Origin: a virus
Virus record (IMG/VR): IMGVR_UViG_3300045988_112927
Coordinates: 56,519-120,518 of that record
Strand: one strand, 5' to 3'
DNA: 64,000 nt
In this document: positions 19,506-34,460 of the stretch, in pieces
Position numbering within the stretch: the stretch's first letter is position 1
How the letters are laid out: every line of letters starts with the position of its first letter
The notes under the pieces: generated by a model
What the model was told of the DNA's origin: nothing
The model's input: the letters and a program-made list of their open reading frames with translations, nothing else
Databases searched by the model: none
Translations under genes and position numbers: made by a program

Positions 19506-19631
19506 GAGTTTTACTCAGAGAATAACGTTTTGATTAACAAAAAAAAATTTTTTCCCGAAATACTACCCCCGAGTATGTCTGCATCGGCTCGCGCACGAAC
19601 CATGCGAGCCGAGTTTACCCCCTTGTAAAGA

Positions 19632-19700
19632 TGCACAAAAAAACTCTGCAAACTTTGTGCAATCTGACAGCTTGACTCTTTTCCCGAAACGTGGTATTAT
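19632..19700 (+). promoter_or_regulatory. class-2 promoter with inverted-repeat operator TGCACAAAA...TTTGTGCAA
   Basis: Operator halves at ~19632 and ~19654, -35 TTGACT, TG-extended -10 TATTAT; first of ~11 copies. Confidence 0.5.
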
Positions 19701-19735
19701 AATTATACAAGGAAGAGATAAGAGAGGTAAACACT

Positions 19736-20053
19736 ATGACATACACAGTATACACACAGAGAAGAACAAACGCAGGCTACATTACATCAGTTAAACGTAA
19801 GAGTGTTAGTAGAGAAGTAGCATTAGAGATTAAAGCACAGTGTATGGCTAACCCTAATAGACAATGTAAATACATTATAGTAGCTGACAGTAGAGCAGAA
19901 GAATACTTAGCAGAAATTGCTAAAAGAAACGCATTAATAGAAGAAGAGAAAAATAGTCGCTGGGCAATCATTGATGAAATGAATAAGAGAGGTTATCACA
20001 CAAGAGATACAATAGCCTTCCTTAACAAAGATTTAAAGACACAGGCTATCTAA
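19736..20053 (+). CDS. hypothetical protein
   Basis: ORF track 105 aa, good RBS. Confidence 0.4.
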   Translation: MTYTVYTQRRTNAGYITSVKRKSVSREVALEIKAQCMANPNRQCKYIIVADSRAEEYLAEIAKRNALIEEEKNSRWAIIDEMNKRGYHTRDTIAFLNKDLKTQAI

Positions 20054-20084
20054 TAACACACAGTAAAAAAGACACGCAAAGCTA

Positions 20085-20113
20085 TTGACAAAACACAGTA
20101 AACGTGCTATAAT
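20085..20113 (+). promoter_or_regulatory. sigma70-type promoter TTGACA-17-TATAAT
   Basis: Consensus hexamers with TG extension. Confidence 0.55.
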
Positions 20114-20138
20114 AACAGTAGAAAGAGAGGTAAAGAGT

Positions 20139-20276
20139 ATGATAACAAAGACATTCACACAAAAAGGACAGATGATTAACTACTACAACAAAGTAAGACA
20201 GAATAAGAAGATAACATTCTGTATGTGTAGTCTTGATGCAGAGCTTGGCTACTGTGTAAGATACTCTTACAACTAA
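20139..20276 (+). CDS. small hypothetical protein (45 aa)
   Basis: ATG at 20139 after RBS AGAGAGG; ORF track start at 20085 lies in promoter. Confidence 0.35.
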   Translation: MITKTFTQKGQMINYYNKVRQNKKITFCMCSLDAELGYCVRYSYN

Positions 20277-20300
20277 ATACATAGAAAAGAGGAGATAACC

Positions 20301-20627
20301 ATGAGAAGAAGAAAGAATGAGTATGAAGTAGAAGATACATTAACAGTAGTAGAGATACTGCAAGGTATAGGCATACTGTTGTTACTACTCCTGGTTATAG
20401 GTGTAGCGGGCTATGTAGAGACACACTATGACAGAGAGGACTGTACAGTGGTGAGTGTGATAGGCTCATGCGTAACAGCAGAGGATAAGGTAGGAGAGCT
20501 ATGGAGCTACTACACAGACACAGATAGTACAGTAGTAATAGGTGACACAGTGACACTACACATGTACACTAACAACACAGACAACACAATCTATGATGAT
20601 GAGGTGATAGGAGTAGATGTACATTAG
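20301..20627 (+). CDS. small membrane protein
   Basis: 108 aa, TM segment near N-terminus. Confidence 0.4.
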   Translation: MRRRKNEYEVEDTLTVVEILQGIGILLLLLLVIGVAGYVETHYDREDCTVVSVIGSCVTAEDKVGELWSYYTDTDSTVVIGDTVTLHMYTNNTDNTIYDDEVIGVDVH

Positions 20628-20649
20628 TACATCTACAAAACCTCGCCAT

Positions 20650-20682
20650 AGGCGCGCCCACGGCTGAGGCGCGCCTTATTCG
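20650..20682 (+). terminator. GC-rich hairpin terminator (family member)
   Basis: GGCGCGCCCACGGCTGAGGCGCGCC then TTATTCGC. Confidence 0.45.
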
Positions 20683-20696
20683 CACTATTGGTAATC

Positions 20697-20764
20697 CTGC
20701 ACAAAAACGAGAGAGAAAATTTGTTCAATTTACCTATTGTATTTTATCCCGAAAGTGGTATACT
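20697..20764 (+). promoter_or_regulatory. class-2 operator/promoter copy
   Basis: CTGCACAAAAA...TTTGTTCAA then CCTATTGTATTTTATCCCGAAAGTGGTATACTATAAT. Confidence 0.45.
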
Positions 20765-20769
20765 ATAAT

Positions 20770-20860
20770 CAGAAGGAAGGCAATGGAGAGCAAAGGAGTA
20801 CAGGTGCTTGACTAACACGCCTAGCCAAGTGCTTAGGAAACGCTCTCCACCCTTTCAAAA
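20770..20860 (+). ncRNA. candidate short structured transcript (no credible ORF; 10-aa mini-ORF only)
   Basis: Downstream of class-2 promoter; long-range GGAGAGC...GCTCTCC stem enclosing repeated AAGTGCTTG/CAAGTGCTT. Confidence 0.2.
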
Positions 20861-20876
20861 AAATAAAAAAAAAGTG

Positions 20877-20905
20877 TTGACAGAATAGCACGAAGATGCT
20901 ATAAT
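20877..20905 (+). promoter_or_regulatory. sigma70-type promoter with A-tract UP element
   Basis: AAAAAAAAAGTG-TTGACA-17-TGCTATAAT. Confidence 0.55.
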
Positions 20906-20939
20906 AATTATAGAAACAAGGAAAGGTAAGGTATTAAAG

Positions 20940-21182
20940 ATGAATAAAGAACAGATGATGGATGAAGTAATTAGAATGTATGGTTTTGAAAATAAATGGA
21001 CAATTTGGTTTTGCGAACTCGCAGAGGTTCTTACAGAAAGCCAGTTGTTAAATGCTTACATCATTCTCAAAGCTGGAGTTGTCCCAGTAGAGGAAGATGA
21101 AGAAGAGTATGAAGAGCCAGATGACATTGATAGCGATTTTGGTTTTGACCCTTACATGGGATGTTGCTCTTATGATTGTTAA
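20940..21182 (+). CDS. hypothetical acidic protein
   Basis: ORF track 80 aa. Confidence 0.4.
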   Translation: MNKEQMMDEVIRMYGFENKWTIWFCELAEVLTESQLLNAYIILKAGVVPVEEDEEEYEEPDDIDSDFGFDPYMGCCSYDC

Positions 21183-21190
21183 AAAAAGGG

Positions 21191-21219
21191 TTGACAAACA
21201 ACCCCAATCGTGCTAAAAT
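21191..21219 (+). promoter_or_regulatory. promoter with -35 inside hairpin GGGTTGACAAACAACCC
   Basis: TTGACA-17-TAAAAT; GGGTTG/CAACCC inverted repeat spans the -35. Confidence 0.45.
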
Positions 21220-21258
21220 AAATGTATAAAGAAAAGGAAAGAAAAGAGGTAAATAAAA

Positions 21259-21576
21259 ATGTTTGTATTCTTAGCGATAGTTTTTACAGTGGTTGTTGGT
21301 TTATTCATTGGTTGTATGTTTACTACAAGTATGAATGGTTGGAAAAGAGGACTTGTGACATTAGCGATTGCGGTTTGCGTAGGTTGTGGAATTTCAGCTA
21401 TGTTCTGCGCAGAAAGAAATAGTGATGTAAAAGCTTGGAATAATGGCTCTTGTGAGTGCGGCGGCACTTGGGAGTTTAGTAATGCGGAGCACTTGAGAAA
21501 TAGTGGCAACTTTTACTATTGGTATTGTGAAGATTGCGGTAGAGTAATTGAATTGCACACACAGTTTACAAAATAA
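21259..21576 (+). CDS. membrane protein with C-terminal zinc ribbon
   Basis: 105 aa; TM segments then CECGG...CEDCG. Confidence 0.4.
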   Translation: MFVFLAIVFTVVVGLFIGCMFTTSMNGWKRGLVTLAIAVCVGCGISAMFCAERNSDVKAWNNGSCECGGTWEFSNAEHLRNSGNFYYWYCEDCGRVIELHTQFTK

Positions 21577-21580
21577 GGGG

Positions 21581-21609
21581 TTGACAAAACCCCATAACCA
21601 TGATAAAAT
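21581..21609 (+). promoter_or_regulatory. promoter with -35 in hairpin GGGGTTGACAAAACCCC
   Basis: TTGACA-17-TAAAAT. Confidence 0.45.
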
Positions 21610-21636
21610 AATTATAGTAAAAGAGAGGTGAACAAC

Positions 21637-21786
21637 ATGGAAGAATTGGCAAGAGAGTATGAACGCAAACATGCGGGTCATGTGACTAAAATAACAGACT
21701 ATTCTTTTGAGTTTGAGACAGTACCAAACAAAGATGGAAAAGTTGAAAAGTATGTTGTGATGTTAAGTTATTTTCTTAAATTGTAA
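21637..21786 (+). CDS. small hypothetical protein (49 aa)
   Basis: ATG 21637 after GAGAGGTG RBS; MEELAREYERKHAGH... Confidence 0.35.
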   Translation: MEELAREYERKHAGHVTKITDYSFEFETVPNKDGKVEKYVVMLSYFLKL

Positions 21787-21794
21787 AAAAGTGC

Positions 21795-21823
21795 TTGACA
21801 AATAATCGTCTAAATGCTATAAT
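21795..21823 (+). promoter_or_regulatory. sigma70-type promoter
   Basis: TTGACA-17-TGCTATAAT. Confidence 0.55.
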
Positions 21824-21853
21824 TAGATTATCAAAAGGAAAGAGGTAAACAAA

Positions 21854-22036
21854 ATGAAAACAGTTATTATTGAATACGCAACAATCGCACCTGATGTGTT
21901 GATTATGAAAATTGAAAAGGCTTTCCCTGGAGCGATGGCAATCTTCAAGGACATTGATGAAGACTACTTTGAGTTTTCTGTTTGGGGTTGCAATGACCTC
22001 GCAATGCTTGAGGATGTTTTGGCTGAGTACATGTAA
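21854..22036 (+). CDS. small hypothetical protein
   Basis: ORF track 60 aa. Confidence 0.35.
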   Translation: MKTVIIEYATIAPDVLIMKIEKAFPGAMAIFKDIDEDYFEFSVWGCNDLAMLEDVLAEYM

Positions 22037-22052
22037 TTCAGCCAATTCTTTT

Positions 22053-22090
22053 GCGCCGCGCGTCCATGGCCCAGACGCGCGGTATTCGCT
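22053..22090 (+). terminator. GC-rich hairpin terminator (family member)
   Basis: GCGCCGCGCGTCCATGGCCCAGACGCGCGGT then ATTCGC. Confidence 0.45.
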
Positions 22091-22103
22091 ATTTTAGTTA
22101 TTC

Positions 22104-22171
22104 TGCACAATTTTCTGGCAAAAACTTTGTGCAATTTGCCAATAGACGCAATCCCGAAATCATGGTATACT
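22104..22171 (+). promoter_or_regulatory. class-2 operator/promoter copy
   Basis: CTGCACAA-N15-TTTGTGCAA then CCCGAAATCATGGTATACT. Confidence 0.45.
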
Positions 22172-22197
22172 CTTAGTATAAAGAAAGAGGTGATACA

Positions 22198-22356
22198 ATG
22201 GAACGCAGAGGTTATCTTGTAATCCAAGAGAAAAGAAGTCACTTCTTAGTGACATTAAAAAATAAAACAGTAATAGATAGAATGATGACACAAGCAGAGT
22301 TAAAGGCAATTATGAAAGAATTTGTAGTTATTGGAATAAAAGTATTGACAGAGTAG
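22198..22356 (+). CDS. small hypothetical protein (52 aa)
   Basis: ATG 22198 after AAAGAAAGAGG; MERRGYLVIQEKRSHF... Confidence 0.35.
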   Translation: MERRGYLVIQEKRSHFLVTLKNKTVIDRMMTQAELKAIMKEFVVIGIKVLTE

Positions 22357-22373
22357 TCAATACGTGTTATAAT
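22345..22373 (+). promoter_or_regulatory. sigma70-type promoter overlapping 3' end of upstream gene
   Basis: TTGACA-17-TGTTATAAT. Confidence 0.5.
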
Positions 22374-22402
22374 TAGATTATCAAAAGGGGAGAGTAATAA
22401 AA

Positions 22403-22792
22403 ATGAATACAATTTATTTAATGAAAGACGAAAAGAAAGATTTTGCATTATTAAAAGTTGGTTTTGCAACAGACCTAAACAAAAGAATTTATGTGTACAC
22501 AACTCACAATCCACTCATTGAATGTATTAGTCATGTAGACACAAGAGAATCAAGTAAACACAAAATTGAAGGTATGTTCCATGATGAAATTTCTCGTAGA
22601 GGTTATTCTTTTGTAAGTGCAAAAATTGATGGAAAGCGCACAGAGTGGTTTAAAATCGACTATGATGACCCATTTTACAAAGAAGTTTGTGAAAAAGGTT
22701 TAAATGCTTTTTCTTGCGGTAAGAATAGAAAAAATCATGGTTATTTCGTAACAGACGCTAAAAAAAGTATTGACAGAATTGCAAATTGGTAG
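22403..22792 (+). CDS. GIY-YIG/T5orf172-like nuclease domain protein
   Basis: IYLMKDEKKDFALLKVGFATDLNKRI resembles GIY...YIG...R motif; C-terminal TEWFK. Confidence 0.4.
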   Translation: MNTIYLMKDEKKDFALLKVGFATDLNKRIYVYTTHNPLIECISHVDTRESSKHKIEGMFHDEISRRGYSFVSAKIDGKRTEWFKIDYDDPFYKEVCEKGLNAFSCGKNRKNHGYFVTDAKKSIDRIANW

Positions 22793-22798
22793 TATAAT
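22770..22798 (+). promoter_or_regulatory. sigma70-type promoter
   Basis: TTGACA-17-TATAAT overlapping end of 22403..22792. Confidence 0.5.
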
Positions 22799-22828
22799 AA
22801 ATGTATAAAAGGAAAGGAAATAAAAACA

Positions 22829-23233: not shown

Positions 23234-23236
23234 ACA

Positions 23237-23419: not shown

Positions 23420-23428
23420 TGGTATTAT
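23400..23428 (+). promoter_or_regulatory. sigma70-type promoter
   Basis: TTGACA-17-TATTAT with TG. Confidence 0.5.
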
Positions 23429-23453
23429 AATTATAGAAAGAGAGGTAATGACC

Positions 23454-24006: not shown

Positions 24007-24042
24007 GGCGCGGCGCGCACGACCCTTGCGCGCCGAATTTTT
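24007..24042 (+). terminator. GC-rich hairpin terminator (family member)
   Basis: CGGCGCGCACGACCCTTGCGCGCCG then AATTTTT. Confidence 0.5.
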
Positions 24043-24055
24043 GTCAAGAGGTAAT

Positions 24056-24125
24056 CTGCACAAATTTATTTGTGAAATTTTGTACAATTTGCCTATTGTA
24101 ATTTATCCCGAAATGGGTTATACTT
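24056..24125 (+). promoter_or_regulatory. class-2 operator/promoter copy
   Basis: CTGCACAAATTT...TTTTGTACAA then CCTATTGTAATTTATCCCGAAATGGGTTATACT. Confidence 0.45.
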
Positions 24126-24156: not shown

Positions 24157-24309
24157 ATGATGGTAACCTTAGATTTTAGCAAGAATTACCGAGAGCAGAC
24201 AGAAGAAGTTAAAAAGGCAATTAGTGAACATGATTTCTATGAGGTGGCTAATTTGGTAGGTTTTAAGGTAGTATTAAAAAAAATGAGAAAAAATAAGAAA
24301 AAGGGTTGA
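24157..24309 (+). CDS. small hypothetical protein (50 aa)
   Basis: MMVTLDFSKNYREQTEEVKK...; stop TGA lies inside next promoter -35. Confidence 0.35.
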   Translation: MMVTLDFSKNYREQTEEVKKAISEHDFYEVANLVGFKVVLKKMRKNKKKG

Positions 24310-24953: not shown

Positions 24954-25256
24954 ATGCAAGCGACAGGAATTATCAGAAGAATTGATGATTTAGGAAGAAT
25001 TGTTATTCCCAGAGAAATCAGAAGACAGTTAAAAATTGGAGAGAGTGACCCACTTGAAATTTTCCTCTCAAGAGATGGAGAAATCATCCTCAAGCCTTAC
25101 AGGACAGAATACACTTTGCGAAAGGCTGATGATTGGGAAGAATTGGAAGACCCACAAGGAAAAGTGGTTGCACAGGGTCATAGACTTAGCGTAGAGGAAA
25201 TTCTTTCTGCTGTTGGTGTAGAATTTCAGATAGAAGAAATTGAAGAGGAGGACTAA
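24954..25256 (+). CDS. AbrB/SpoVT-type DNA-binding regulator (second copy)
   Basis: IRRIDDLGRIVIPREIRRQLKIGESDPLEIF classic swapped-hairpin N-domain. Confidence 0.65.
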   Translation: MQATGIIRRIDDLGRIVIPREIRRQLKIGESDPLEIFLSRDGEIILKPYRTEYTLRKADDWEELEDPQGKVVAQGHRLSVEEILSAVGVEFQIEEIEEED

Positions 25257-25259
25257 AAA

Positions 25260-25463
25260 ATGGCAATGGATTCAGTTGGAGCAATTATCAATCACAGTAT
25301 GACAATTAGCAACATGATTGCGGTAGAACAAGAGCGAGAGCGCAAACACGCAATAAATCCAAGGTGCAAGCCCGCAAATTTTGGTGGAGTTGCTTCTTAC
25401 ATTGAGTATGCGACAGGCGTTAAATGTTCTGCAGAAGATGTAAAAAAAGTGTTGACAAAGTAG
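25260..25463 (+). CDS. small hypothetical protein
   Basis: ORF track 67 aa, coupled to upstream gene. Confidence 0.35.
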   Translation: MAMDSVGAIINHSMTISNMIAVEQERERKHAINPRCKPANFGGVASYIEYATGVKCSAEDVKKVLTK

Positions 25464-25480
25464 CCAATCAGTGCTATAAT
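25452..25480 (+). promoter_or_regulatory. sigma70-type promoter
   Basis: TTGACA-17-TGCTATAAT. Confidence 0.55.
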
Positions 25481-25486
25481 TAAAAC

Positions 25487-25655
25487 ATAGAAAGGAAGTG
25501 AAAGAAATGAGAAGTCCTCCGAGGTAAAACCCACAAGATAGGAAATTGCGGAAACGCACTCGCCAAAGGTCATGCACATTAGGGCGGGATAGCAATGCGA
25601 CCGAGTGCTCTCTGAAGTGCGTAGGAGAGTTGAGCCAGTTGGGACACTGGCTCTT
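25487..25655 (+). ncRNA. candidate ~165-nt non-coding RNA (promoter to terminator, only a 6-codon ORF)
   Basis: Bounded by consensus promoter and GAGCCAGT..ACTGGCTC-TTTTT terminator; GC-richer than surroundings. Confidence 0.3.
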
Positions 25656-25658: not shown

Positions 25659-25697
25659 ATTTGGCGGCGCGCTGACGTTCCTGGCGCGCCGCATTTT
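25659..25697 (+). terminator. GC-rich hairpin terminator (family member)
   Basis: GGCGGCGCGCTGACGTTCCTGGCGCGCCGC then ATTTT. Confidence 0.45.
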
Positions 25698-25708
25698 ACG
25701 AGAGTAGC

Positions 25709-25785
25709 AATCTGCACAATTTCTGCTTTAAAAATTTGGTTATTTTACCTATTGTATTTTATCCCAAAATGGGGTATTATAATAG
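25709..25785 (+). promoter_or_regulatory. class-2 operator/promoter copy
   Basis: TCTGCACAATTTCTG... then CCTATTGTATTTTATCCCAAAATGGGGTATTATAAT. Confidence 0.45.
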
Positions 25786-25873
25786 TGTCAAGAGGGAAGC
25801 GGTTGCTGAAAGGAACTACTCAAAAACCTTAAAGGGTGCAACCTAGGGAGTCAAAAAAAGTTTCAAAAAACTC

Positions 25874-25902
25874 TTGACAACCTCATACGAAAGTGATATA
25901 AT
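25874..25902 (+). promoter_or_regulatory. sigma70-type promoter
   Basis: TTGACA-17-TGATATAAT. Confidence 0.55.
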
Positions 25903-25936: not shown

Positions 25937-26092
25937 ATGAGAATTGAGAGAAGTGACGACAAGGCTTATCCATACACAATTAAAGGTGGTTGGGGCGACA
26001 AGGTTTATTGTACAGAAGATGGTCTGAAAGAGCTTAAAAGAGAAATCAATAAAATTCTTAAAGAAAATAAAGAAAAAGGGTTGACAAAATAA
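25937..26092 (+). CDS. small hypothetical protein (51 aa)
   Basis: MRIERSDDKAYPYTIKGGWGDKVYC...; stop overlaps next -35. Confidence 0.35.
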   Translation: MRIERSDDKAYPYTIKGGWGDKVYCTEDGLKELKREINKILKENKEKGLTK

Positions 26093-26973: not shown

Positions 26974-27270
26974 ATGAAATATTATAGATTTACAGCAGAT
27001 ACACCTTATTGCGGAACTGAAAACACAACTTACATAAAGTTTGAAATAGAACCAACAGAAAGTGAACTTGCAGACATTGCGGCAGACTTAAACGCAAGCA
27101 ACGCAGAATCCTATGAATACATGGTTTTTGGTTGGGACGCCGACCCTGTCGCAGATGGCGAAATGACAGAAGAAGAGTATGAGGAAGAAATGGAATCTTA
27201 CAGAGAAGATTGCACTTGCTTTTATGATGAAGTTTCAGAAGAGGAATATTTTGAAAATGGGGGAGAGTAA
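26974..27270 (+). CDS. hypothetical acidic protein
   Basis: ORF track 98 aa, Glu/Asp-rich. Confidence 0.4.
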   Translation: MKYYRFTADTPYCGTENTTYIKFEIEPTESELADIAADLNASNAESYEYMVFGWDADPVADGEMTEEEYEEEMESYREDCTCFYDEVSEEEYFENGGE

Positions 27271-27327
27271 TCTCTCCCATTTTTAATTTGCGCCGGGCGC
27301 GCACGATTCTCGCGCCCGGTTTTTCGG
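27258..27327 (+). terminator. tandem terminators (GGGGGAGAG..CTCTCCC-TTTTT, then GC-rich hairpin family member)
   Basis: Two consecutive hairpins each followed by T-run. Confidence 0.45.
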
Positions 27328-27376
27328 GATAACCTTTCATTATAACATTTTTTCGGCGAATTGTCAACTGGCAGAT

Positions 27377-27444
27377 TGCACAAAGATTTTCCTGTAATTT
27401 TGTGCAATCTGCCAGTTGTATTTTGGGCGCAGATAGGTTATAAT
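27377..27444 (+). promoter_or_regulatory. class-2 operator/promoter, best palindrome GGCAGATTGCACAA-N15-TTGTGCAATCTGCC
   Basis: 14-bp perfect inverted arms, then GTTGTATTTTGGGCGCAGATAGGTTATAAT. Confidence 0.55.
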
Positions 27445-27515
27445 AATAATGTCAAGAGGGAGTGGGAGCAAACCTTTGGGAACTCTCCTCAACAAAAAAA
27501 AGTTGGAAAAACCTC

Positions 27516-27720
27516 TTGACAAATAAAAAAAATTATGATATAATAAATATAGAAAGTGAGGGAAAAAGAAATACCAAAAAATTTCTAAAAAAAATTAAAA
27601 AAAATGGTTGACAAAATAAAAAAAATATGATATAATAAATATGTAAGATAAAGAAAGAACTTAAAAATCTTTCAAAAAATAAAAAAAGTGCTTGACAAAC
27701 AAAGCACAAGATGTTATAAT
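27516..27720 (+). promoter_or_regulatory. three stacked consensus sigma70 promoters (27516, 27608, 27692)
   Basis: Each TTGACA-17-T(G)ATATAAT/TGTTATAAT with A-tract UP elements. Confidence 0.55.
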
Positions 27721-27800
27721 AAGAATGTAAAGAGGAAAACCTCTTACAGATAAAAAAAATAGGGTTGCGACCAAGCGCAATAAAAGAAAGGATTGATACT

Positions 27801-28157
27801 ATGGAAAACAAGAAGATGACTAAGAGAGAAATGTTTGAGCAGATTAAGGCTACCTATCCGCTGACCGCAGAGGAAGTTGCTTTCATTGACCATGAGCTTG
27901 AGCTTTTGGCAAAGAAGAACTCCGCTGACAAGAAGCCTACCAAGGTACAGGTAGAGAATGAAGCTATCAAGGCTGACATTGTTGGTGGTATGGAAGCTGG
28001 TAAGCAGTACACCATTACTGACCTTATCAAGTCTGTTCCTGCTATCGCAGAGTTGAGCAACCAGAGAGTTTCCGCACTGGTTCGCCAGTTGGTAGCTGAT
28101 GGCTCTGTTGTAAGGGTTGAGGAAAAGCGCAAGGCTTACTTCTCCCTTGCGGAGTAG
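27801..28157 (+). CDS. abundant-early-protein paralog A1 (putative winged-helix DNA-binding)
   Basis: 118 aa; ~80% identical to 32046..32399; elevated GC and G/C-ending codons; ATG 27801 after AAAGAAAGGA. Confidence 0.5.
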   Translation: MENKKMTKREMFEQIKATYPLTAEEVAFIDHELELLAKKNSADKKPTKVQVENEAIKADIVGGMEAGKQYTITDLIKSVPAIAELSNQRVSALVRQLVADGSVVRVEEKRKAYFSLAE

Positions 28158-28265: not shown

Positions 28266-28643
28266 ATGACAAAAACAGAAAGAGAAAAGCTGATTGCCAA
28301 GCACATGGCTACTCTTGATATTACAAGAGAAGAAGCAGAACAGTTGATTGCTGATGATGAAGCCATTGATAAGGGCGCAAAGTTGTTTGAACTTGACAAA
28401 GAAGCGGAAAAGGCAAGCAAAAAGGCAAGAGCCATTGGCACAAAGACCACAACCGCAACCGCCAAGAAGCCAAGAGAGAAAAAGGCTGATAATGACAAAG
28501 CGCAGATTATGGAAGAAATCAGAGAAGCAATTTCCAACCTCAATGGAGTGAGTGACATTGATGTCACAAATGCGGAAAGAGAAATGGTGTTCTTCTGTAA
28601 TGGCAGAAAATTCAAGGTGGTACTGTCTGCGCCAAGAACCTAA
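28266..28643 (+). CDS. abundant-early-protein paralog B1 (Lys-rich linker)
   Basis: 125 aa; paralog of 32451..32816. Confidence 0.45.
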   Translation: MTKTEREKLIAKHMATLDITREEAEQLIADDEAIDKGAKLFELDKEAEKASKKARAIGTKTTTATAKKPREKKADNDKAQIMEEIREAISNLNGVSDIDVTNAEREMVFFCNGRKFKVVLSAPRT

Positions 28644-28660: not shown

Positions 28661-28694
28661 GGGGCGAATCTACCAAAGATTCGCCCCTTTTATT
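28661..28694 (+). terminator. intrinsic terminator
   Basis: GGGGCGAATC-TACCAAA-GATTCGCCCC then TTTTATT. Confidence 0.55.
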
Positions 28695-28738
28695 GTGCAA
28701 TTTTACTACTTGACATTTTCAGTTCAAAGTGGTAAAAT

Positions 28739-28775
28739 GGCCGCCCGCGCACATACGCGCGGGCCGGAATTTTTG
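28739..28775 (+). terminator. GC-rich hairpin (family member) preceded by its own TTGACA-17-TAAAAT promoter
   Basis: GGCCGCCCGCGCACATACGCGCGGGCCGG then AATTTTT; promoter at ~28711-28739. Confidence 0.4.
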
Positions 28776-28787
28776 TAAATACCCAAC

Positions 28788-28856
28788 TTGCACAAATTTG
28801 CTGGCGAAAATTTGTGCAAAATTACTACTTGTATTTTTCCCGAAAAGTGATATAAT
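28788..28856 (+). promoter_or_regulatory. class-2 operator/promoter copy
   Basis: TTGCACAAATTTG...AATTTGTGCAAA then CTTGTATTTTTCCCGAAAAGTGATATAAT. Confidence 0.5.
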
Positions 28857-28880: not shown

Positions 28881-29051
28881 ATGGACGCTTTTAAGAGAGA
28901 AACAGTAGTTGGTTACACTTGTTATGACATTAACGCAAAATGTGTTCACAATAAACACAGACACAAAGACGGGCAAATGATTAAAAGAACCGCAAGAAGA
29001 AAATTCAAAGAAAAGTTAAAAAAAATGCTTGACAACCAAGAGGAAATGTAG
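28881..29051 (+). CDS. small basic protein (56 aa)
   Basis: MDAFKRETVVGYTCYDINAKCVHNKHRHKDGQ... Confidence 0.35.
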   Translation: MDAFKRETVVGYTCYDINAKCVHNKHRHKDGQMIKRTARRKFKEKLKKMLDNQEEM

Positions 29052-29888: not shown

Positions 29889-29951
29889 GGGCTAGGGAAA
29901 CCTAGCCCTTTCCTTTTGTCTTGGGCTGGCCGCGCTCGGTCACCGCGGCCA
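29889..29951 (+). terminator. tandem terminators (GGGCTAGGG-AAA-CCTAGCCC; GC-rich family hairpin CTGGCCGCG..CGCGGCCAG)
   Basis: Two hairpins with T-rich tails. Confidence 0.45.
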
Positions 29952-30008
29952 GAATTTACCATTATACCACCGGCCGCACTTTTTGTCAAGAAAAACGTGC
30001 GAAAAAAA

Positions 30009-30080
30009 TTGCACAAACTTTTTCCCGAAATTTTGTGCAATTTGTCTATTGTAATTTGCGGCGGGCGGTGGTATACTAAT
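30009..30080 (+). promoter_or_regulatory. class-2 operator/promoter copy
   Basis: TTGCACAAACTTTTTCCCGAAATTTTGTGCAA then CTATTGTAATTTGCGGCGGGCGGTGGTATACT. Confidence 0.5.
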
Positions 30081-30139
30081 TATAGTTGATGAGGGAGAGA
30101 GAAAACCTCATAAAAAAATAAAAAAAGTTGAAAAAACTG

Positions 30140-30168
30140 TTGACAAGTGGCAGACAGTATGCTATAAT
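30140..30168 (+). promoter_or_regulatory. sigma70-type promoter
   Basis: TTGACA-17-TGCTATAAT. Confidence 0.55.
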
Positions 30169-30199: not shown

Positions 30200-30931
30200 A
30201 TGAGTAGAAGAAAAGAAATGTTTTTAGTAATTGACACAGAAACTTGCAACACTATTGAGCAACCACTTCCTTATGATATTGGTTATGCAATTTGTGACAG
30301 AAAAGGCAACATTGTTTTGGAAAGAAGTTTTGTTGTTGCTGAAATGTTTTTAGACCACAAAGATGTTATGAAAAGTGCTTATTTTGCTAAAAAAATTCCT
30401 CACTACTGGGATGATTTGAAAAAAGGCACAAGAGAGTTAAAGTCCATTTTCAACATTAGAAAACAGATTTTAGCTGATATGAAACAGTATAAAGTTAAAA
30501 AAGTTGGTGCTTATAATATGGGTTTTGACAAGAGAGCATTAAATAATGTGATTAGATACTGTTCACATTCTTTCATCAGATGGTTTTTCCCTTTTGGTAC
30601 AGAGTTTTTCTGTATTTGGAATATGGCTTGCCAAACACTTTTGAACACTACAACCTATGTAAAATTTGCCCTTGCTAATGGGTTAGAAAGTGACAAGGGA
30701 AACATTCTAACAAGTGCAGAAAGTTGTTACAGATTTCTGACAAATTCAGTTGATTTTGAAGAAAGTCACACAGGTTTGGAAGATGTTAGAATTGAAGTTG
30801 AAATTATGGCAAAATGTTTTGCAACTCATAAAAAAATGAATAAAAGAGTAAATTCTTCTTGTTGGAGATTGCCACAGAGAAAAAGAAAGGAGTTAGACTT
30901 GCGTGAAACATTCCGCACCGCCACAGTATAG
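30200..30931 (+). CDS. DnaQ-like DEDDh 3'-5' exonuclease
   Basis: LVIDTETCN (Exo I), YNMGFDKRAL (Exo II), HTGLEDV (Exo III); start ATG 30200. Confidence 0.6.
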   Translation: MSRRKEMFLVIDTETCNTIEQPLPYDIGYAICDRKGNIVLERSFVVAEMFLDHKDVMKSAYFAKKIPHYWDDLKKGTRELKSIFNIRKQILADMKQYKVKKVGAYNMGFDKRALNNVIRYCSHSFIRWFFPFGTEFFCIWNMACQTLLNTTTYVKFALANGLESDKGNILTSAESCYRFLTNSVDFEESHTGLEDVRIEVEIMAKCFATHKKMNKRVNSSCWRLPQRKRKELDLRETFRTATV

Positions 30932-30975
30932 GCGGAGCGGAAAACCGCACGAACAAAAAATTTTTTCAAAAAAGC

Positions 30976-31005
30976 GTTGACAAATAATTCCAAGAGTGAT
31001 ACAAT
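30976..31005 (+). promoter_or_regulatory. sigma70-type promoter
   Basis: TTGACA-18-TACAAT. Confidence 0.45.
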
Positions 31006-31036
31006 AATTATAGAAAGAGAAAAGGAAGTGATATAA

Positions 31037-31225
31037 ATGGAAGATTACAGTTGTCCTAAATGCGGGAGTGAGGACATTTACACCTTTGATGATAAGGACT
31101 GTGAAATCAACTTTGAAGATGAAACATTTTATGTGAGAAGTGCAATGAGTTGTAATTGTTGCGGGCATGATTTTATAATGGTAGCAAGTGGAAGATTAAC
31201 AGATATTAAGTTTGAAAGGAGATAA
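31037..31225 (+). CDS. zinc-ribbon small protein
   Basis: CPKCGSED...CNCCGHDF. Confidence 0.4.
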   Translation: MEDYSCPKCGSEDIYTFDDKDCEINFEDETFYVRSAMSCNCCGHDFIMVASGRLTDIKFERR

Positions 31226-31228
31226 AAA

Positions 31229-31549
31229 ATGTTTCAGTTTGGCGAAAAAGTGATTATTAAAGACCCCACCTTAAAAAGCCACAATAGAAAAGGGTTGTAT
31301 GTTGGCGAGAGTAAGACCAAGAGCGGACAAGTAAAAGTTTATCTTGAAGAACCTATCAAGAGCGGAAAAAATACCATTGCTTGTGTCACTATTGGGGCGG
31401 ATAAGGTTTTCAACTATGTAGAAGATGAAAAAGAAGCAATGCAGGCTCGCCTTGATTTCCTTTACCGCAGAGCGGATGAACTGGAAACAGAGTTAGTTGA
31501 CGCAAGAGAAGAAATTTTTCAGATTGAGAAAAAGTTAATGGGCAGATAA
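31229..31549 (+). CDS. hypothetical protein
   Basis: ORF track 106 aa. Confidence 0.4.
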   Translation: MFQFGEKVIIKDPTLKSHNRKGLYVGESKTKSGQVKVYLEEPIKSGKNTIACVTIGADKVFNYVEDEKEAMQARLDFLYRRADELETELVDAREEIFQIEKKLMGR

Positions 31550-31600
31550 GTCTGCCCATTATTTGCGCCCAGCGCGCCGCGCACGTACGATGCGCGGCGA
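31541..31600 (+). terminator. tandem terminators (GGGCAGA-TAAGT-CTGCCC; GC-rich family hairpin)
   Basis: Hairpins followed by T-runs. Confidence 0.45.
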
Positions 31601-31659
31601 ATTTTCCATTATACCACCCCGCCGAGATTTTGTCAAGCAAAAGTTGACCGGCAATTTGC

Positions 31660-31736
31660 ACAAAATTTTTCCCAAAATCTTGTGCAGTTTGACAGTTGTA
31701 TTTTTGGGGGAAATGGGTTATAATAAATAATGTCAA
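31660..31736 (+). promoter_or_regulatory. class-2 operator/promoter copy
   Basis: TTGCACAAAATTTTTCCCAAAATCTTGTGCAG then GTTGTATTTTTGGGGGAAATGGGTTATAAT. Confidence 0.5.
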
Positions 31737-31793
31737 AGGGAGATAGGCAATCAGCCTTAAAGAAAAAAAGTTTTAAAAAATTCAAATTCCCTA

Positions 31794-31997
31794 TTGACAA
31801 ATAAAAAAAGTTATGATATAATAAATATGTAAAGAAAAGGAAAGAGTCTTAAATGACAAGTAGGTAAAAGCCTCTGGTTGGAAAATCCTTGCAAGGTAAC
31901 ACAAGCGAAACCCTATTGCAGACAATTTCAGAAGTTTGAAAATCTTCAAAAAAAATTCAAAAAACCTATTGACAACTGAATAAAGATATGTTATAAT
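31794..31997 (+). promoter_or_regulatory. stacked consensus sigma70 promoters (31794 and 31969) upstream of paralog A2
   Basis: TTGACA-17-TGATATAAT and TTGACA-17-TGTTATAAT. Confidence 0.5.
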
Positions 31998-32045
31998 AAC
32001 AATGTAAACAAAAACAAATCACATTTGAAAGGATTGGTACAGATT

Positions 32046-32399
32046 ATGGAAAAGAAAATGACTAAGAGAGAAATGTTTGAACAGATTAAGAGAAACTATG
32101 ACTTAACCCAGGCTGAGGTTGACTTCATTGACCATGAGTTAGAGTTGCTTGCAAAGAAAAATTCTGCTGATAAGAAACCTACTAAGGTTCAGGTGGAAAA
32201 TGAGGGTATTAAGGCTGAAATCCTTGAGGGTATGGAAGTAGGTAAGGCTTACACCATTACTGATTTGATTAAGGAAGTGCCTGCTATTGCTGAATTAAGC
32301 AATCAGAGAGTGTCTGCCCTTGTTAGACAGTTAGTTGCTGATGGTTCAGTAACAAGAACAGAGGAAAAGAGAAAGGCATACTTCACAAAAGTAGCCTAA
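32046..32399 (+). CDS. abundant-early-protein paralog A2
   Basis: MEKKMTKREMFEQIK... ~80% identical to 27801..28157. Confidence 0.5.
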   Translation: MEKKMTKREMFEQIKRNYDLTQAEVDFIDHELELLAKKNSADKKPTKVQVENEGIKAEILEGMEVGKAYTITDLIKEVPAIAELSNQRVSALVRQLVADGSVTRTEEKRKAYFTKVA

Positions 32400-32450
32400 T
32401 CTTGATTGGGTGGGGGAAACCCCACCCCCCACAAAAGGGGGTAGGTAGAA

Positions 32451-32816
32451 TTGACAGATAAAATCAAAAATTTAATGGAAAAGTTAGATATTACAGAGGA
32501 AGAAGCTCTTCAGTTGGTGGAAGATGATAAAGCCATAGATAGGGGCGAAAAACTCTTTGAATTGTCTGATGAACAGAAGAAAAACGCGAAAAAGGCTACA
32601 AATTTGGGAGAAAAGACCAAAAAAACCACTAAAAAAGCCCCAAATCGCAAGAAAAATGACACAAAAGCCACAATTATCAGTGAATTGTCTGAATTTTTGG
32701 CTCAAAATGAGCAAATTGTAGCTGAAAATGTGGAAATTGTCAACGCAGAACGCCAAATTTCCTTCAAAATTGGCGAAAATTCATACAGTTTGACGCTTAC
32801 TCAACACAGGAAGTAG
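32451..32816 (+). CDS. abundant-early-protein paralog B2 (probable TTG start)
   Basis: Aligns with 28266..28643 from N-terminus only if TTG 32451 used; alternative ATG 32475. Confidence 0.4.
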   Translation: MTDKIKNLMEKLDITEEEALQLVEDDKAIDRGEKLFELSDEQKKNAKKATNLGEKTKKTTKKAPNRKKNDTKATIISELSEFLAQNEQIVAENVEIVNAERQISFKIGENSYSLTLTQHRK

Positions 32817-32819
32817 GCA

Positions 32820-32850
32820 AACCGCCCAAAAAGGGCGGTATTTTTTTGTT
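32820..32850 (+). terminator. intrinsic terminator
   Basis: ACCGCCC-AAAAA-GGGCGGT then ATTTTTTTG. Confidence 0.55.
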
Positions 32851-32861
32851 CATTTTTACTA

Positions 32862-32920
32862 TTGACACCCAGCCGCAAATGTGGTATAATTGGCGGCCCG
32901 TTTTCGCTTGCGCTGGGCCG
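32862..32920 (+). promoter_or_regulatory. promoter TTGACA-17-TGGTATAAT reading directly into a GC-rich family hairpin
   Basis: Hairpin CGGCCCGTTTTCGCTTGCGCTGGGCCG immediately downstream of -10. Confidence 0.4.
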
Positions 32921-32941
32921 AACTTCCGTTCTGTATAATTA

Positions 32942-33009
32942 GCACAAAAAATCTCGGCAAAACTTGTGCAAAATTACCTATTGACTATTTTCCCAAAATG
33001 GTGTATACT
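32942..33009 (+). promoter_or_regulatory. class-2 operator/promoter copy
   Basis: GCACAAAAAATCTCGGCAAAACTTGTGCAAA then CCTATTGACTATTTTCCCAAAATGGTGTATACT. Confidence 0.5.
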
Positions 33010-33039
33010 TTAATTACAGTAAAGGAAAGGAATGAGATT

Positions 33040-33261
33040 ATGTTAGAAAAGGTAAAAGATTTCTATGAAAGAGAATACATCAGCACTGAAAGATACTTAA
33101 AAGGTAAATGGTGCGGTGACAAAAGAATGGTTGTAGAAAAAACTATCTCTTACTTTTTAGGCATTGCACAGTTTGTACAGACTATTGGTGTCAAGTATGA
33201 GGACATTGATGTTCTTTACAACATTTACAAAAAAAAGTTACAGAAACTACTTGACAACTAA
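33040..33261 (+). CDS. small hypothetical protein (73 aa)
   Basis: ATG 33040 (MLEKVKDFYEREY); track start 32890 spans regulatory region. Confidence 0.4.
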   Translation: MLEKVKDFYEREYISTERYLKGKWCGDKRMVVEKTISYFLGIAQFVQTIGVKYEDIDVLYNIYKKKLQKLLDN

Positions 33262-33279
33262 ATAAAAAAATGATATAAT
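33251..33279 (+). promoter_or_regulatory. sigma70-type promoter overlapping gene end
   Basis: TTGACA-17-TGATATAAT. Confidence 0.5.
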
Positions 33280-33313
33280 AAATATAACAAAAGGAAAGGA
33301 ATGGTAAAAAATT

Positions 33314-33586
33314 ATGATGAAAATGAGTGAGTTAGCAAATTTGTTAGTAAACGCAATCGCAGAGGTAGGCGATAGAGAGATTGGCTTTGTGGAAGAGGGA
33401 ACTGGCGAGGTTCGCTACTTGGTTGGTCTGTCAATCAGTCAGAGTGATGCAATGCTTGAGCATGTTTCCTATGGAGAAATGCAGATGATTAAACAGTTGG
33501 ATAGGCTGGGTGTTATGATGGATGAAGCTGGAGATGTTTCTCTGCCTGACCTTTTCAATCTTATGGGGGATTTGCTTGATGAATAA
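33314..33586 (+). CDS. hypothetical protein
   Basis: ORF track 90 aa. Confidence 0.4.
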   Translation: MMKMSELANLLVNAIAEVGDREIGFVEEGTGEVRYLVGLSISQSDAMLEHVSYGEMQMIKQLDRLGVMMDEAGDVSLPDLFNLMGDLLDE

Positions 33587-33794
33587 TGAAGATTTGGTTT
33601 TAAGAATGAACATTCTTGGGGGCATGAACTCTTTTGTTCTTGCCCTTGGGGATGAAAATATTTTAGAGGGTTGGATTGTTTATGGTGTTCAAGATGAAGC
33701 CACAGAGGATGATTTGAGAGCCATTGCGGAAGATGATGATTGCTTTGCAGATGTCTGTGAGTATTTCGCAAAAATTTGTAGAAAGAGAGGATAA
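33579..33794 (+). CDS. hypothetical acidic protein (71 aa)
   Basis: ATG 33579 overlapping upstream stop (ATGAATAATG). Confidence 0.35.
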   Translation: MNNEDLVLRMNILGGMNSFVLALGDENILEGWIVYGVQDEATEDDLRAIAEDDDCFADVCEYFAKICRKRG

Positions 33795-33799
33795 AAAAA

Positions 33800-34066
33800 T
33801 TGTTTTATTACATAATAGCTTGTGTGGTAATGGTTGCACTTGTATACATTAAAGTGTATGCGGAAATGGTGGAATTTAAGAAGATTTTCCCCAATTTAAG
33901 GTTCAAAAAGCAAGGTGTAGCAAAAATTTTTATAGACACTGTAAAGGTGCTTGTACTCTTTGCAATTCCAATAATTAATTTGATACTTTTCATTGCTTTG
34001 TTTTTTGTCCTTGATGAAAATGAATACAGAAAAGCAATAATGAAGAATTGTGAAAGCCTCCTCTAA
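33800..34066 (+). CDS. small two-TM membrane protein
   Basis: 88 aa, two hydrophobic helices. Confidence 0.4.
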   Translation: MFYYIIACVVMVALVYIKVYAEMVEFKKIFPNLRFKKQGVAKIFIDTVKVLVLFAIPIINLILFIALFFVLDENEYRKAIMKNCESLL

Positions 34067-34078
34067 TGGGGGCTTTTT
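34050..34078 (+). terminator. intrinsic terminator
   Basis: AGCCTCC-TCTAAT-GGGGGCT then TTTTCC. Confidence 0.4.
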
Positions 34079-34079
34079 C

Positions 34080-34460
34080 CATGCCCATTTTCGCCGGCCG
34101 ACAATGGTCGATTATGCCGGAATTTTACAAAAAAGTCAACTATGCAATTTTCACAAACAAAATACCGCCCTTTTGTGCAATCTGCACAATTCCTGAAAAC
34201 CCCTTTGCGCCCCGGGCGGTCCTGGACCCCATATGCGATTTAATGCTATTGCCGGCCGCAGGCGACTGGCCAGGCCGGGATTCGCCGATCGGTCCCCATA
34301 TGGAAAATTTTTTTGTTGAAAGCATATGTCCCTTCAGGCCATATGCTTTCCCGGAATTGTACTGACCCCCTATCACTTTTAAATGCTCAGTGCATATGCG
34401 ATTGCCTCTCCAGTAAACAAAAATTAGAAGTCGCGAATGCGACTTCATATGCAAACAGTA
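34080..34460. other. GC-rich non-coding island dense in palindromes (6x CATATG, CCGATCGG, GCCGGCCG, CCCGGG) with a head-to-head TTTGTGCAA/TGCACAA site
   Basis: Seen directly; composition contrasts with flanking AT-rich DNA. Confidence 0.4.

Follow-up and report, generated by a model that had tools for sequence, protein, structure and literature searches.

The 64,000-nucleotide (nt) stretch analysed here, called the window, covers positions 56,519 to 120,518 of the IMG/VR virus record IMGVR_UViG_3300045988_112927 and comes from a large siphophage whose hosts are low-GC Gram-positive bacteria. The large terminase, encoded at 13603-15342 on the minus strand, shares about 50% identity with the terminases of Enterococcus phages H1 and VRE9_4 and of Geobacillus virus E3, 44% with that of Phage Phass-1 and 60% with that of a human faecal contig; its kin in the search were H1, Geobacillus virus E3, Phass-1 and SPbeta-like siphophages. 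From 1 to 17.7 kb the genes, including the terminase, lie on the minus strand, and from 17.8 to 34.1 kb follows a block of small plus-strand genes. On the plus strand, 21 perfect TTGACA-N17-TATAAT promoters fall between 17.7 and 33.3 kb and none falls outside the small-gene block anywhere in the window; because of this confinement the block looks early and driven by the host polymerase. Most of the small genes between 19.6 and 34.2 kb have no family match. The subject of this report is a composite cassette of about 130 base pairs (bp), repeated in the intergenic spaces of this block (19.58-34.20 kb) as ten full copies and one partial copy, which combines a GC-rich hairpin, an inverted repeat (the palindrome), a TCCC(G/A)AAA box and a sigma-A-type promoter.

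Searching the window for TGCACAA-N16-TTGTGCA with up to three mismatches gave 15 matches, against 4.1 +/- 1.9 in shuffled sequences, none of 100 shuffles reaching 15. Eleven of the 15 (19632, 20698, 22104, 24057, 25713, 27377, 28789, 30010, 31657, 32941 and 34150) are the sites of a module reported in an earlier first-pass annotation made from the sequence alone, whose count of eleven copies is thus borne out, as is its choice of the palindrome at 27377 as the best one. A profile built from the ten core sequences recovers those ten at E = 1e-17 to 1e-23. All 11 copies are confined to the 19.6-34.2 kb block of small plus-strand genes. The distance from hairpin end to palindrome is 18-22 nt in seven copies, which we call short, and 57 nt in three, which we call long, while the centre of the palindrome lies 46-48 bp from the -10 element in all ten full copies. 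The copy near 34.18 kb had been described as inverted; its hairpin lies upstream of the 34150 palindrome on the plus strand, like the others, so it is not.

The stem of the hairpin, about 9 bp long, consists almost entirely of G/C pairs, and its 3' tail is rich in T. When a covariance model derived from the ten stem-loops was run over the 64 kb, it returned exactly those ten and a weak 11th (34086-34130, plus strand). All nine stem pairs are maintained, and compensatory changes occur in seven of the nine among the ten window hairpins alone. In 117 distinct related hairpins 95% of stem cells are paired and eight of the nine pairs change on both sides (239 cells), compared with 70% paired in column shuffles and 27-45% with slid partners; the 117-hairpin alignment was fitted to the model, which somewhat inflates these pairing figures. 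Four stem positions are semi-invariant (C-G, G-C, C-G and G-C, in 102-111 of the 117). As read from the sequence, eight or nine of the ten upstream genes have a conventional terminator of their own, 5-60 nt before the GC hairpin, which makes the hairpin a distinct second element. Rfam 15 at the gathering score found only transfer RNAs (tRNAs) in the window, and in a permissive search of 17.7-35.2 kb all matches were sub-threshold, none lay on a hairpin and none was to a CRISPR-repeat family. Mimicry of CRISPR repeats, as in RNA anti-CRISPRs, was rejected because the stems differ between copies with compensatory changes and match no CRISPR family in Rfam. An integron attC-like site was set aside on anatomy.

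Each arm of the palindrome has a -35-like hexamer 9 bp further out, so that the palindrome forms the axis of two back-to-back sigma-A-type promoters. The palindrome-anchored consensus of 71 non-redundant copies reads GGCAAnTTGCACAAA-N12-TTTGTGCAAnTTGCC, followed by the TTG of a -35. The rightward promoter is present in all ten full copies, with the palindrome centre at about -59 relative to its predicted start. Its -35 is TTGTAT or TTGTAA in seven of the ten, and by sequence the rightward promoters match 8-10 of 12 consensus positions, compared with 11-12 of 12 for the leftward and hairpin-directed ones. The module had been described as carrying an extended -10 promoter; a sigma-A-type promoter is indeed there in ten copies, but the TGn extension in only five. 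On the left side, a perfect promoter accompanies the three long copies (palindromes 27377, 30010 and 31657), and leftward -10 and -35 elements are seen in many relatives. The palindrome overlaps neither the -35, the -10 nor the start of the rightward promoter, its proximal arm ending 9 bp upstream of the -35, and it is a symmetric site suited to a dimeric DNA-binding protein. A dimer-type site at constant distance upstream of a weak -35 is also the arrangement that a class I activator or a protein of the phi29 p4 type would use.

Several strong promoters are aimed at the hairpin itself. The earlier annotation had noticed two, at 28.71 and 32.86 kb, and both are confirmed (28710-28738 and 32862-32890); to these we add three perfect minus-strand promoters (27367-27339, 29989-29961 and 31636-31608). 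The predicted leftward starts lie 1-12 nt from the hairpin base, and the predicted leftward RNAs fold as two-hairpin RNAs with z = -3.8 to -5.1 relative to shuffles.

In contexts aligned on the hairpin, TCCC(G/A)AAA and not the palindrome ranks second in conservation. This box lies 68-71 bp past the hairpin end in all 11 window copies, the box of the 11th (34191-34198) having been located by reading the sequence and not by the spacing script. In 82 of 102 non-redundant relatives the box falls at +59 to +62, counted from where the hairpin model ends, with 61 of them sharing one exact offset, and no other offset in 220 nt holds more than two occurrences. Spacing is fixed in 45 of 53 palindrome-positive contexts and in 37 of 49 palindrome-negative ones. 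Relative to the promoter, the box occupies three registers: inside the -35/-10 spacer (short copies), inside the palindrome spacer (long copies) or 4 nt upstream of the -35 (many relatives). In Phass-1 the palindrome spacer is 27 bp instead of 16 and the box is still at +68, and relatives that lack the TGCACAA palindrome keep hairpin and box with other lineage-specific repeats in the same interval. Exact TCCCGAAA occurs eight times in the window, all between 19.5 and 30.1 kb, and with the G/A variant 15 times against 5.7 expected. It had been taken for a conserved promoter spacer; what is conserved is its distance from the hairpin, around which the promoter slides. The box is therefore a hairpin-anchored element and not a promoter-spacer element, and this placement points to two separate recognition events. 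Of the dimeric factor earlier proposed for the operator, the symmetric site stands; the site is, however, upstream of the promoter, and one factor would leave the box to a second event. We know of no established mechanism for measuring 70 bp between a stem-loop and a DNA box.

Directly 3' of five of the ten full cassettes comes a small gene of 50-105 amino acids (aa), as had been claimed for every module. The other five lead into a non-coding leader of 55-95 nt (20771-20850, 25781-25873, 27451-27515, 30085-30139 and 31731-31793) and then one to three perfect consensus promoters. Three of these leaders open with GTCAAGAGGGA or its variant GTCAAAGGGAG, a sequence similar to a ribosome-binding site. 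Three leaders were folded, and in two of them pairing between the leader and the -35 region (CCTCTTGAC) of the promoter that follows forms a stem at the RNA 5' end (z = -3.8 and -2.2) that may be an RNA 5' stabiliser; none of the leaders matched an Rfam family. A regulon solely of tiny genes, as first suggested, does not describe the targets, since the genes after cassettes include a 243-aa exonuclease-like gene, a 155-aa gene whose phage H1 counterpart is annotated as a haloacid dehalogenase-like hydrolase, and a duplicated winged-helix gene.

All copies read on the plus strand. Among the short ones, cassette 1 (19584-19700) comprises hairpin 19584-19612, palindrome 19632-19661, -35 TTGACT 19672-19677, box TCCCGAAA 19682-19689 and -10 TATTAT 19695-19700, and precedes a gene at 19736-20053. 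Cassette 2 (20650-20764; hairpin 20650-20676, palindrome 20698-20727, -35 TTGTAT 20737-20742, box 20747-20754, -10 TATACT 20759-20764) is followed by its leader and a consensus promoter at 20877. Cassette 3 (22055-22171) has hairpin 22055-22083, palindrome 22104-22133, -35 TAGACG 22143-22148, box 22152-22159 and -10 TATACT 22166-22171 ahead of the gene 22198-22356, and cassette 4 (24011-24124) has hairpin 24011-24035, palindrome 24057-24086, -35 TTGTAA 24096-24101, box 24106-24113 and -10 TATACT 24119-24124 ahead of the gene 24157-24309. The right palindrome arm is degenerate in cassette 5 (25664-25780; hairpin 25664-25692, palindrome 25713-25742, -35 25752-25757, box TCCCAAAA 25762-25769, -10 25775-25780), after which come the leader and a promoter at 25874. 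Cassette 7 (28741-28856; hairpin 28741-28766, palindrome 28789-28818, -35 28829-28834, box 28838-28845, -10 TATAAT 28851-28856) precedes the gene 28881-29051, and upstream of it a half-site TTGTGCAA (28693-28700) accompanies the promoter TTGACA-N17-TAAAAT at 28710-28738, whose predicted start is the base of hairpin 7. A similar pair, the degenerate half-site TTGTTCA (32846-32852) with the perfect promoter 32862-32890, fires into the hairpin of cassette 10 (32894-33009), the weakest of the ten (32894-32920); its palindrome is at 32941-32970, -35 TTGACT at 32981-32986, box TCCCAAAA at 32991-32998 and -10 TATACT at 33004-33009, and the gene 33040-33261 follows.

The long copies carry the box or a box-like motif inside the palindrome spacer. 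Cassette 6 (27292-27444) has the best palindrome, GGCAGATTGCACAA...TTGTGCAATCTGCC (27377-27406), with the box-like TCCTGTAA at 27390-27397, hairpin 27292-27319, -35 27416-27421 and -10 TATAAT 27439-27444, and leads through its leader and three consensus promoters to the winged-helix gene A1 (27801-28157). Its leftward promoter (27339-27367, minus strand) is a perfect TTGACA-N17-TATAAT with TG; the predicted RNA of about 90 nt would extend across the hairpin as far as the upstream gene's terminator, transcribed in reverse, and the fold of 27240-27334 (minus strand) has z = -3.8. In cassette 8 (29926-30077) are hairpin 29926-29952, palindrome 30010-30039, box 30023-30030, -35 30049-30054 and -10 TATACT 30072-30077, then the leader, a promoter at 30140 and the exonuclease-like gene (30200-30931); its perfect leftward promoter (29961-29989, minus strand) has its predicted start at the hairpin base (fold z = -4.7). 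Cassette 9 (31575-31724; hairpin 31575-31599, palindrome 31657-31686, box TCCCAAAA 31670-31677, -35 31696-31701, -10 TATAAT 31719-31724) leads through its leader and two consensus promoters to the winged-helix gene A2 (32046-32399), and its leftward promoter (31608-31636, minus strand) is again perfect (fold z = -5.1). The partial cassette 11 (34094-34198) has hairpin 34094-34120 (the model match 34086-34130, E = 0.065), palindrome TTCACAA-N16-TTGTGCA at 34150-34179 and box TCCTGAAA at 34191-34198 without a rightward promoter; a leftward promoter-like site, TTGACT-N17-CATAAT (34139-34111, minus strand), is weaker than the perfect leftward ones. At the other end of the series, four (T)CCGAAAT box-like motifs (at 19429, 19443, 19480 and 19554, spanning 19429-19561 on the plus strand) lie between a terminator (19394-19419) and the first hairpin, in a region conserved in the related loci L245 and L327; a tandem-repeat finder run on this 19.4-19.56 kb cluster returned nothing.

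An exact-palindrome scan of the collection followed by profile searches found over 40 IMG/VR contigs, up to about 190 kb in length, that carry full-length cassettes although their neighbouring early proteins are mostly only about 30-65% identical to those of the window. Conservation of the inverted repeat in related genomes, on which the first-pass annotation had staked its proposal, is thus found in these contigs and in Phass-1, which has four to six copies at 126.6-133 kb. In an unbiased sample anchored on a structural gene by the terminase, 42 of 80 loci have one to four cassettes within 10 kb, all on the early-gene side and nearly all in the same orientation. With the hairpin model, 139 hairpins are recovered from 66 related loci, every one of them running in the direction of the early genes. 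Altogether, the related phage contigs in which the cassette is conserved number more than 60. Enterococcus phage H1 has a reduced form, two hairpin-box units with about 70-74 bp between hairpin and box and quite different repeats in the interval; its control regions (locus L325, OP534061.1; 6555-7534 and 15767-16582) hold AAATAACA..TGTTATTT repeats. The same H1 regions contain several boxes which we take to be Rex-like (TTGTGAA-N4-TTCACAA) and cre-like (TGTAAGCGCTTACA), and which suggest a link of phage early transcription to host regulators. In nucleotide-level searches of annotated phages, the region and one cassette gave no matches, while a synthetic consensus retrieved Phass-1; a literature search on motif strings such as TTGTGCAA returned primer noise only. 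Because it is conserved across the whole phage family, we regard the cassette as a real control element.

The genes between cassettes are subject to turnover. Two relatives at 70-85% nucleotide identity (L326 and L327) keep 11-12 cassettes and have several genes in different inter-cassette slots. In a closer one (L389, about 92% identity), 12 kb compared with the window show three indels: a 51-aa gene (25937-26092) that lies between two repeated promoters is lost, the gene 26974-27270 has an internal 188-bp deletion, and an insertion of about 1 kb adds two genes together with a whole cassette (terminator, GC hairpin, palindrome, box at +70 and promoter). The junctions of this insertion lie in repeated promoter/ribosome-binding-site sequence, and no crossover inside the cassette itself was seen in the relatives compared. 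Being repeated, the cassettes and consensus promoters would provide homology for the gain, loss and reshuffling of small genes.

Several proteins of the region could read these elements. Two are of the AbrB/SpoVT type (18385-18648 and 24954-25256), and homologues of the first occur at 16 of 21 palindrome-positive loci versus 5 of 13 palindrome-negative ones. A duplicated gene pair, A/B, occupies 27801-28157 with 28266-28643 and 32046-32399 with 32451-32816; two or three perfect TTGACA-N17-TATAAT promoters, 85-175 bp apart, stand ahead of each pair (27516-27740 and 31794-32000). Protein A (118 aa), whose genes follow cassettes 6 and 9, has over 5,000 homologues, and its identity to the best 120 is 78-98%; its predicted model (mean predicted local distance difference test score, pLDDT, 86) is a winged helix with best fold matches to ArsR/SmtB, MarR and TubR, and a distant homologue seems to be present in H1. 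On this circumstantial evidence protein A is the best phage-encoded candidate for the family-wide element. Protein B (28266-28643) gave no informative fold match (pLDDT 77, best E = 0.4). Another possible transcription factor is a 129-aa protein (36238-36627, minus strand) that combines DUF6291 with a helix-turn-helix at the C-terminus resembling sigma-70 region 4; its identity in L326 and L327 is 84-88%, a higher conservation than its neighbours show. A search for auto-regulation, in the form of a regulator gene always behind the best palindrome, returned the exonuclease-like gene as the most consistent target. Compared by eye, the CodY, Noc/ParB, Spo0A, sigma-54 and NrdR motifs seem to fit neither the box nor the palindrome.

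The reader could equally possibly be a host protein. In its 18-nt form TTGCACAAA-N14-TTTGTGCAA, the palindrome occurs in at least 120 bacterial genome contigs, nearly all Clostridia among the matches listed (loci L125-L244), and only four of the 120 listed contigs are obviously phage-like. In 12 contigs it stands 6 nt upstream of the TTGACT-N17-TATAAT promoter of a conserved 44-aa gene by ylmC/ymxH, a palindrome-promoter geometry equal to that of the phage within 2 bp; in 13 a TetR-family gene, divergent from a class-III-like aminotransferase, follows 10-22 nt downstream of it, and in at least five it is located upstream of sigma-factor genes of the extracytoplasmic function type.

Our preferred reading, to which we give a probability of roughly 0.5, is that the palindrome is an activator site for a dimeric factor and that the cassette is a factor-controlled promoter coupled to an insulating stem-loop. 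The copies would be paralogues that divide the early region of gut Firmicute siphophages of about 130-190 kb into separately controlled transcription units. The GC stem-loop, usually just past the ordinary terminator of the upstream gene, would serve as an extra insulator or terminator. In the long copies the perfect leftward promoter would produce a stable two-hairpin RNA of about 80-95 nt ending at the reversed upstream terminator. The 30-bp inverted repeat lies on the axis of the back-to-back promoters, its centre would be at about -59 if the promoter elements are used as predicted, and the rightward promoter has what looks like a deliberately poor -35 (TTGTAT/TTGTAA), often with an extended -10, compared with the 21 perfect promoters nearby. 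A dimeric protein on the repeat could then touch RNA polymerase from upstream, like a class I activator or phi29 p4, and would set the timing of the rightward promoters. These ten co-regulated promoters would be layered over constitutive early promoters, as T4 middle promoters lie upstream of early ones. The box would be a second, more ancient element, 70 +/- 1 bp from the hairpin and presumably read by a different, family-wide factor.

A number of points weigh against this reading. Promoter activity, start sites and termination are all deduced from the letters, which fit activation or repression and cannot decide between them. A terminator role does not explain a second, special hairpin, and only three of the ten hairpins (24011, 28743 and 31575) pass a strict stem-plus-T-run terminator rule; the other seven fail it because their T tails are short or interrupted by AA (for example TATTCGC, GAGTTTAC and AACTTCC). 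Nor does the reading explain the rigid 70-bp hairpin-box spacing or the strong promoters that start right at the hairpin from either side. As for the reader, AbrB-like proteins are undetectable, even at E = 1, in the whole Phass-1 genome and in a 40-kb stretch of H1, where hairpin-box elements occur, and so are excluded as the general factor. In relatives, a cassette does not consistently precede the winged-helix gene, and the presence of the 18-nt palindrome in mostly non-phage Clostridial contigs suggests that its reader may be a host protein.

That last point leads to a reading we think possible at clearly less than even odds, in which the palindrome is the operator of a Clostridial transcription factor, copied by the phage so that its early promoters are tied to the physiological state of the host. 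By our estimate fewer than ten of the at least 120 genome matches would arise by chance, only four of the 120 listed contigs are obviously phage, the geometry at the 44-aa gene (12 contigs) resembles the phage arrangement, and in 13 contigs the palindrome stands close upstream of the TetR-family gene; the Rex-like and cre-like boxes of H1 suggest that the family does embed host operators. The matches are, however, heterogeneous (111 flanking genes), with no obvious regulon beyond two orthologous locus groups, of which the TetR loci may be an unrelated operator that matches by accident. Each phage lineage, moreover, has its own repeat at this position, which co-evolving phage proteins would fit equally well. 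If the protein is a phage early protein such as the AbrB-like one, the palindrome might instead be a repressor operator through which early promoters are shut off or auto-limited in both directions. A symmetric, high-information palindrome common to divergent promoters is found in many phage switch regions, two AbrB/SpoVT-type proteins are encoded here, and homologues of the 18385-18648 gene are more frequent at palindrome-positive loci. Yet we find this improbable: the palindrome is off the -35, -10 and start, the weakened -35 suggests promoters that need help rather than repression, and Phass-1 has the palindrome and no detectable AbrB-like protein. An upstream position near -59, common to divergent promoters, does not make a repressor operator the most natural reading.

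Two further readings turn from the palindrome to the hairpin. In one, the RNA is the point: the cassette would make abundant small RNAs with stable 5' hairpins that act as a decoy or sponge for a host RNase, RNA-binding or immune protein, or as antisense to upstream 3' ends, and the rest would be ordinary promoter DNA. Strong promoters do start at the hairpin base from the right (27367, 29989 and 31636) or the left (28710 and 32862), in Phass-1, L103 and L115 from both sides, and a hairpin-adjacent promoter accompanies 35 of 134 related hairpins; the stem covaries and the predicted RNAs are unusually stable. But about three quarters of the hairpins have no such promoter, the orientation of the hairpin DNA is fixed (TTT before, GAATTT after) so that the two kinds of RNA would differ in loop and flanks, the stems vary between copies, a variation that speaks against imitation of a single RNA such as a CRISPR repeat, Rfam gives no match, and the DNA box 70 bp away is contained in none of the predicted RNAs. 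We hold this account doubtful. In the other, which we consider unlikely though somewhat less so, the core is a DNA-level nucleoprotein element, a cruciform-capable GC palindrome with a box at 70 bp, read by a family-wide factor (possibly the winged-helix protein) and acting as a supercoiling or domain boundary or a recombination site, with promoters as tenants. For it speak the 68-71 bp spacing in all 11 copies and the one narrow offset in 82 of 102 relatives, the independence of this spacing from the palindrome and its persistence in Phass-1 and (at about 70-74 bp) in H1, the three registers of promoter elements relative to the box, and the semi-invariant stem positions. The differing stems would defeat a dimer that reads duplex and require a structure-specific reader, the reader proteins on either element are hypothetical, and ten gene-co-oriented copies in 15 kb, always by promoters, fit transcription better than chromosome architecture. 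A bolder form, which we offer as a long shot of comparable standing, makes stem-loop and box at 70 +/- 1 bp a previously undescribed nucleoprotein device that links, in either direction, the end of a transcription unit with the beginning of its neighbour. A reader with structure and sequence specificity, possibly the winged-helix protein, could measure a polymerase-sized stretch of DNA, and the coupling might come about through capture or recycling of terminating RNA polymerase or through a supercoiling boundary.

Repeated cassettes with a comparable composition are known from T4-like phages, in which a stem-loop is joined to an early (PeSL) or middle (PmSL) promoter (Arbiol et al. 2010, PMC2839356; Comeau et al. 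2014, PMC4122927). Like the cassette of the window, they combine a short composite stem-loop with a sigma-70-type promoter, are repeated many times in a plastic early region among small orphan genes, fall into several classes by the position of stem-loop relative to promoter, and are tied to indels and gene shuffling between close relatives (PMC2839356, PMC4122927). In the T4-like cassettes the promoter has an AT-rich upstream region, the stem-loop is one that can serve as terminator or attenuator, and copies recombine to give indels, shuffling or mini-circles. The PmSL variant couples the stem-loop to a factor-dependent promoter, as our preferred reading would have it here. The window cassette differs in coming from an unrelated Firmicute siphophage lineage and host without sequence homology, and in that its hairpin is usually added to an ordinary terminator and is not itself the terminator. 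Since the terminase groups with those of H1, E3, Phass-1 and SPbeta-like siphophages, the resemblance is one of analogy, not homology. Not described for PeSL/PmSL are a palindrome that forms the axis of divergent promoters, promoters whose starts lie at the hairpin from left or right, lineage-specific palindrome swapping and a rigid 70-bp hairpin-box ruler kept from Enterococcus to Clostridial phages. By this comparison the cassette appears to be a variant of the composite stem-loop/promoter cassettes of phage early regions, with a richer architecture than first noted.

The p4 switch of phage phi29 controls divergent early (A2c and A2b) and late (A3) promoters through p4 sites, p4 acting together with the nucleoid protein p6. 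Its half-sites, about 15-16 bp apart, between divergent promoters and upstream of a poor -35, resemble the palindrome, a geometry that would allow activation on one side and repression on the other. In contrast to the single switch of phi29 there are ten here, the half-site sequences are unrelated, no p4-like protein was identified in the window phage and no p6 equivalent shown. T4 middle promoters, in which a MotA box replaces the -35 at about -30 and works with a sigma-70 -10 element and AsiA, are likewise a class with a defective -35 and a repeated motif, placed upstream of genes that have consensus early promoters; the palindrome here is at about -59, however, the box TCCCGAAA occurs in three registers relative to the promoter, and no MotA or AsiA homologue was found among the proteins scanned. 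REP/BIME elements are GC-rich extragenic palindromes of enterobacterial chromosomes, with IHF or gyrase sites, RAYT-associated and without a promoter. They share with the window element a GC hairpin just after genes, structure kept over sequence and a box at fixed spacing, while the window element is in a phage, carries a promoter and is unrelated in sequence; no RAYT/IS200-type or other transposase-like family was found among about 40 proteins scanned in the 64 kb. The host-takeover module of SPO1 has many strong sigma-A early promoters and terminators around small genes, and the window, also from a Firmicute phage, shows a similar density of small early genes each with a near-perfect sigma-A promoter. 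We know of no repeated palindrome-hairpin-box cassette in SPO1.

Human-gut and other gut- or rumen-type metagenomes commonly contain large siphophages of this kind, nearly all of whose early genes are without an assigned function. The cassette delimits transcription units and a co-regulated gene set, and the hairpin model together with the box provides a search key for early regions in contigs of uncultured phages. As compact terminator and promoter parts, the cassettes may also be of use in Firmicute synthetic biology. Should the palindrome be a host operator, gut phages would be wiring their takeover programme to a host regulator; should the 70-bp ruler reflect a new protein-DNA machine, termination and initiation would be coupled by a new principle. 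The core element is present in H1 and its relatives, which are in culture, so that the question is open to experiment.

Some other features of the window were recorded. Amid the early genes, 22403-22792 encodes a T5orf172/MUG113-domain protein, a relative of GIY-YIG-type nucleases. At 25452-25655 a perfect promoter (25452-25480) is followed by about 150 nt with a mere six-codon reading frame and then a good terminator (25632-25653); this stretch may be a small RNA or leader, its fold is no better than shuffles (z = -0.4), and no Rfam family matched it. At 33970-34082 Rfam gave a sub-threshold match to the Phe leader (41.8 bits where the gathering score is 55, E = 4e-4), which overlaps both the terminator and the end of the gene 33800-34066 and is probably a chance match driven by the terminator. 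Outside the block, 17 tRNA genes form two clusters within 50618-63698, and two open reading frames between them (55996-58879) gave sub-threshold radical-SAM/4Fe-4S matches. The right end of the early block (34180-34480) has a GC content of 43%, with five or six repeats centred on CATATG and a 14-nt hairpin at 34318-34350; its conservation in L326 and L327 is about 77%, and it could be an origin, a packaging site or a boundary.

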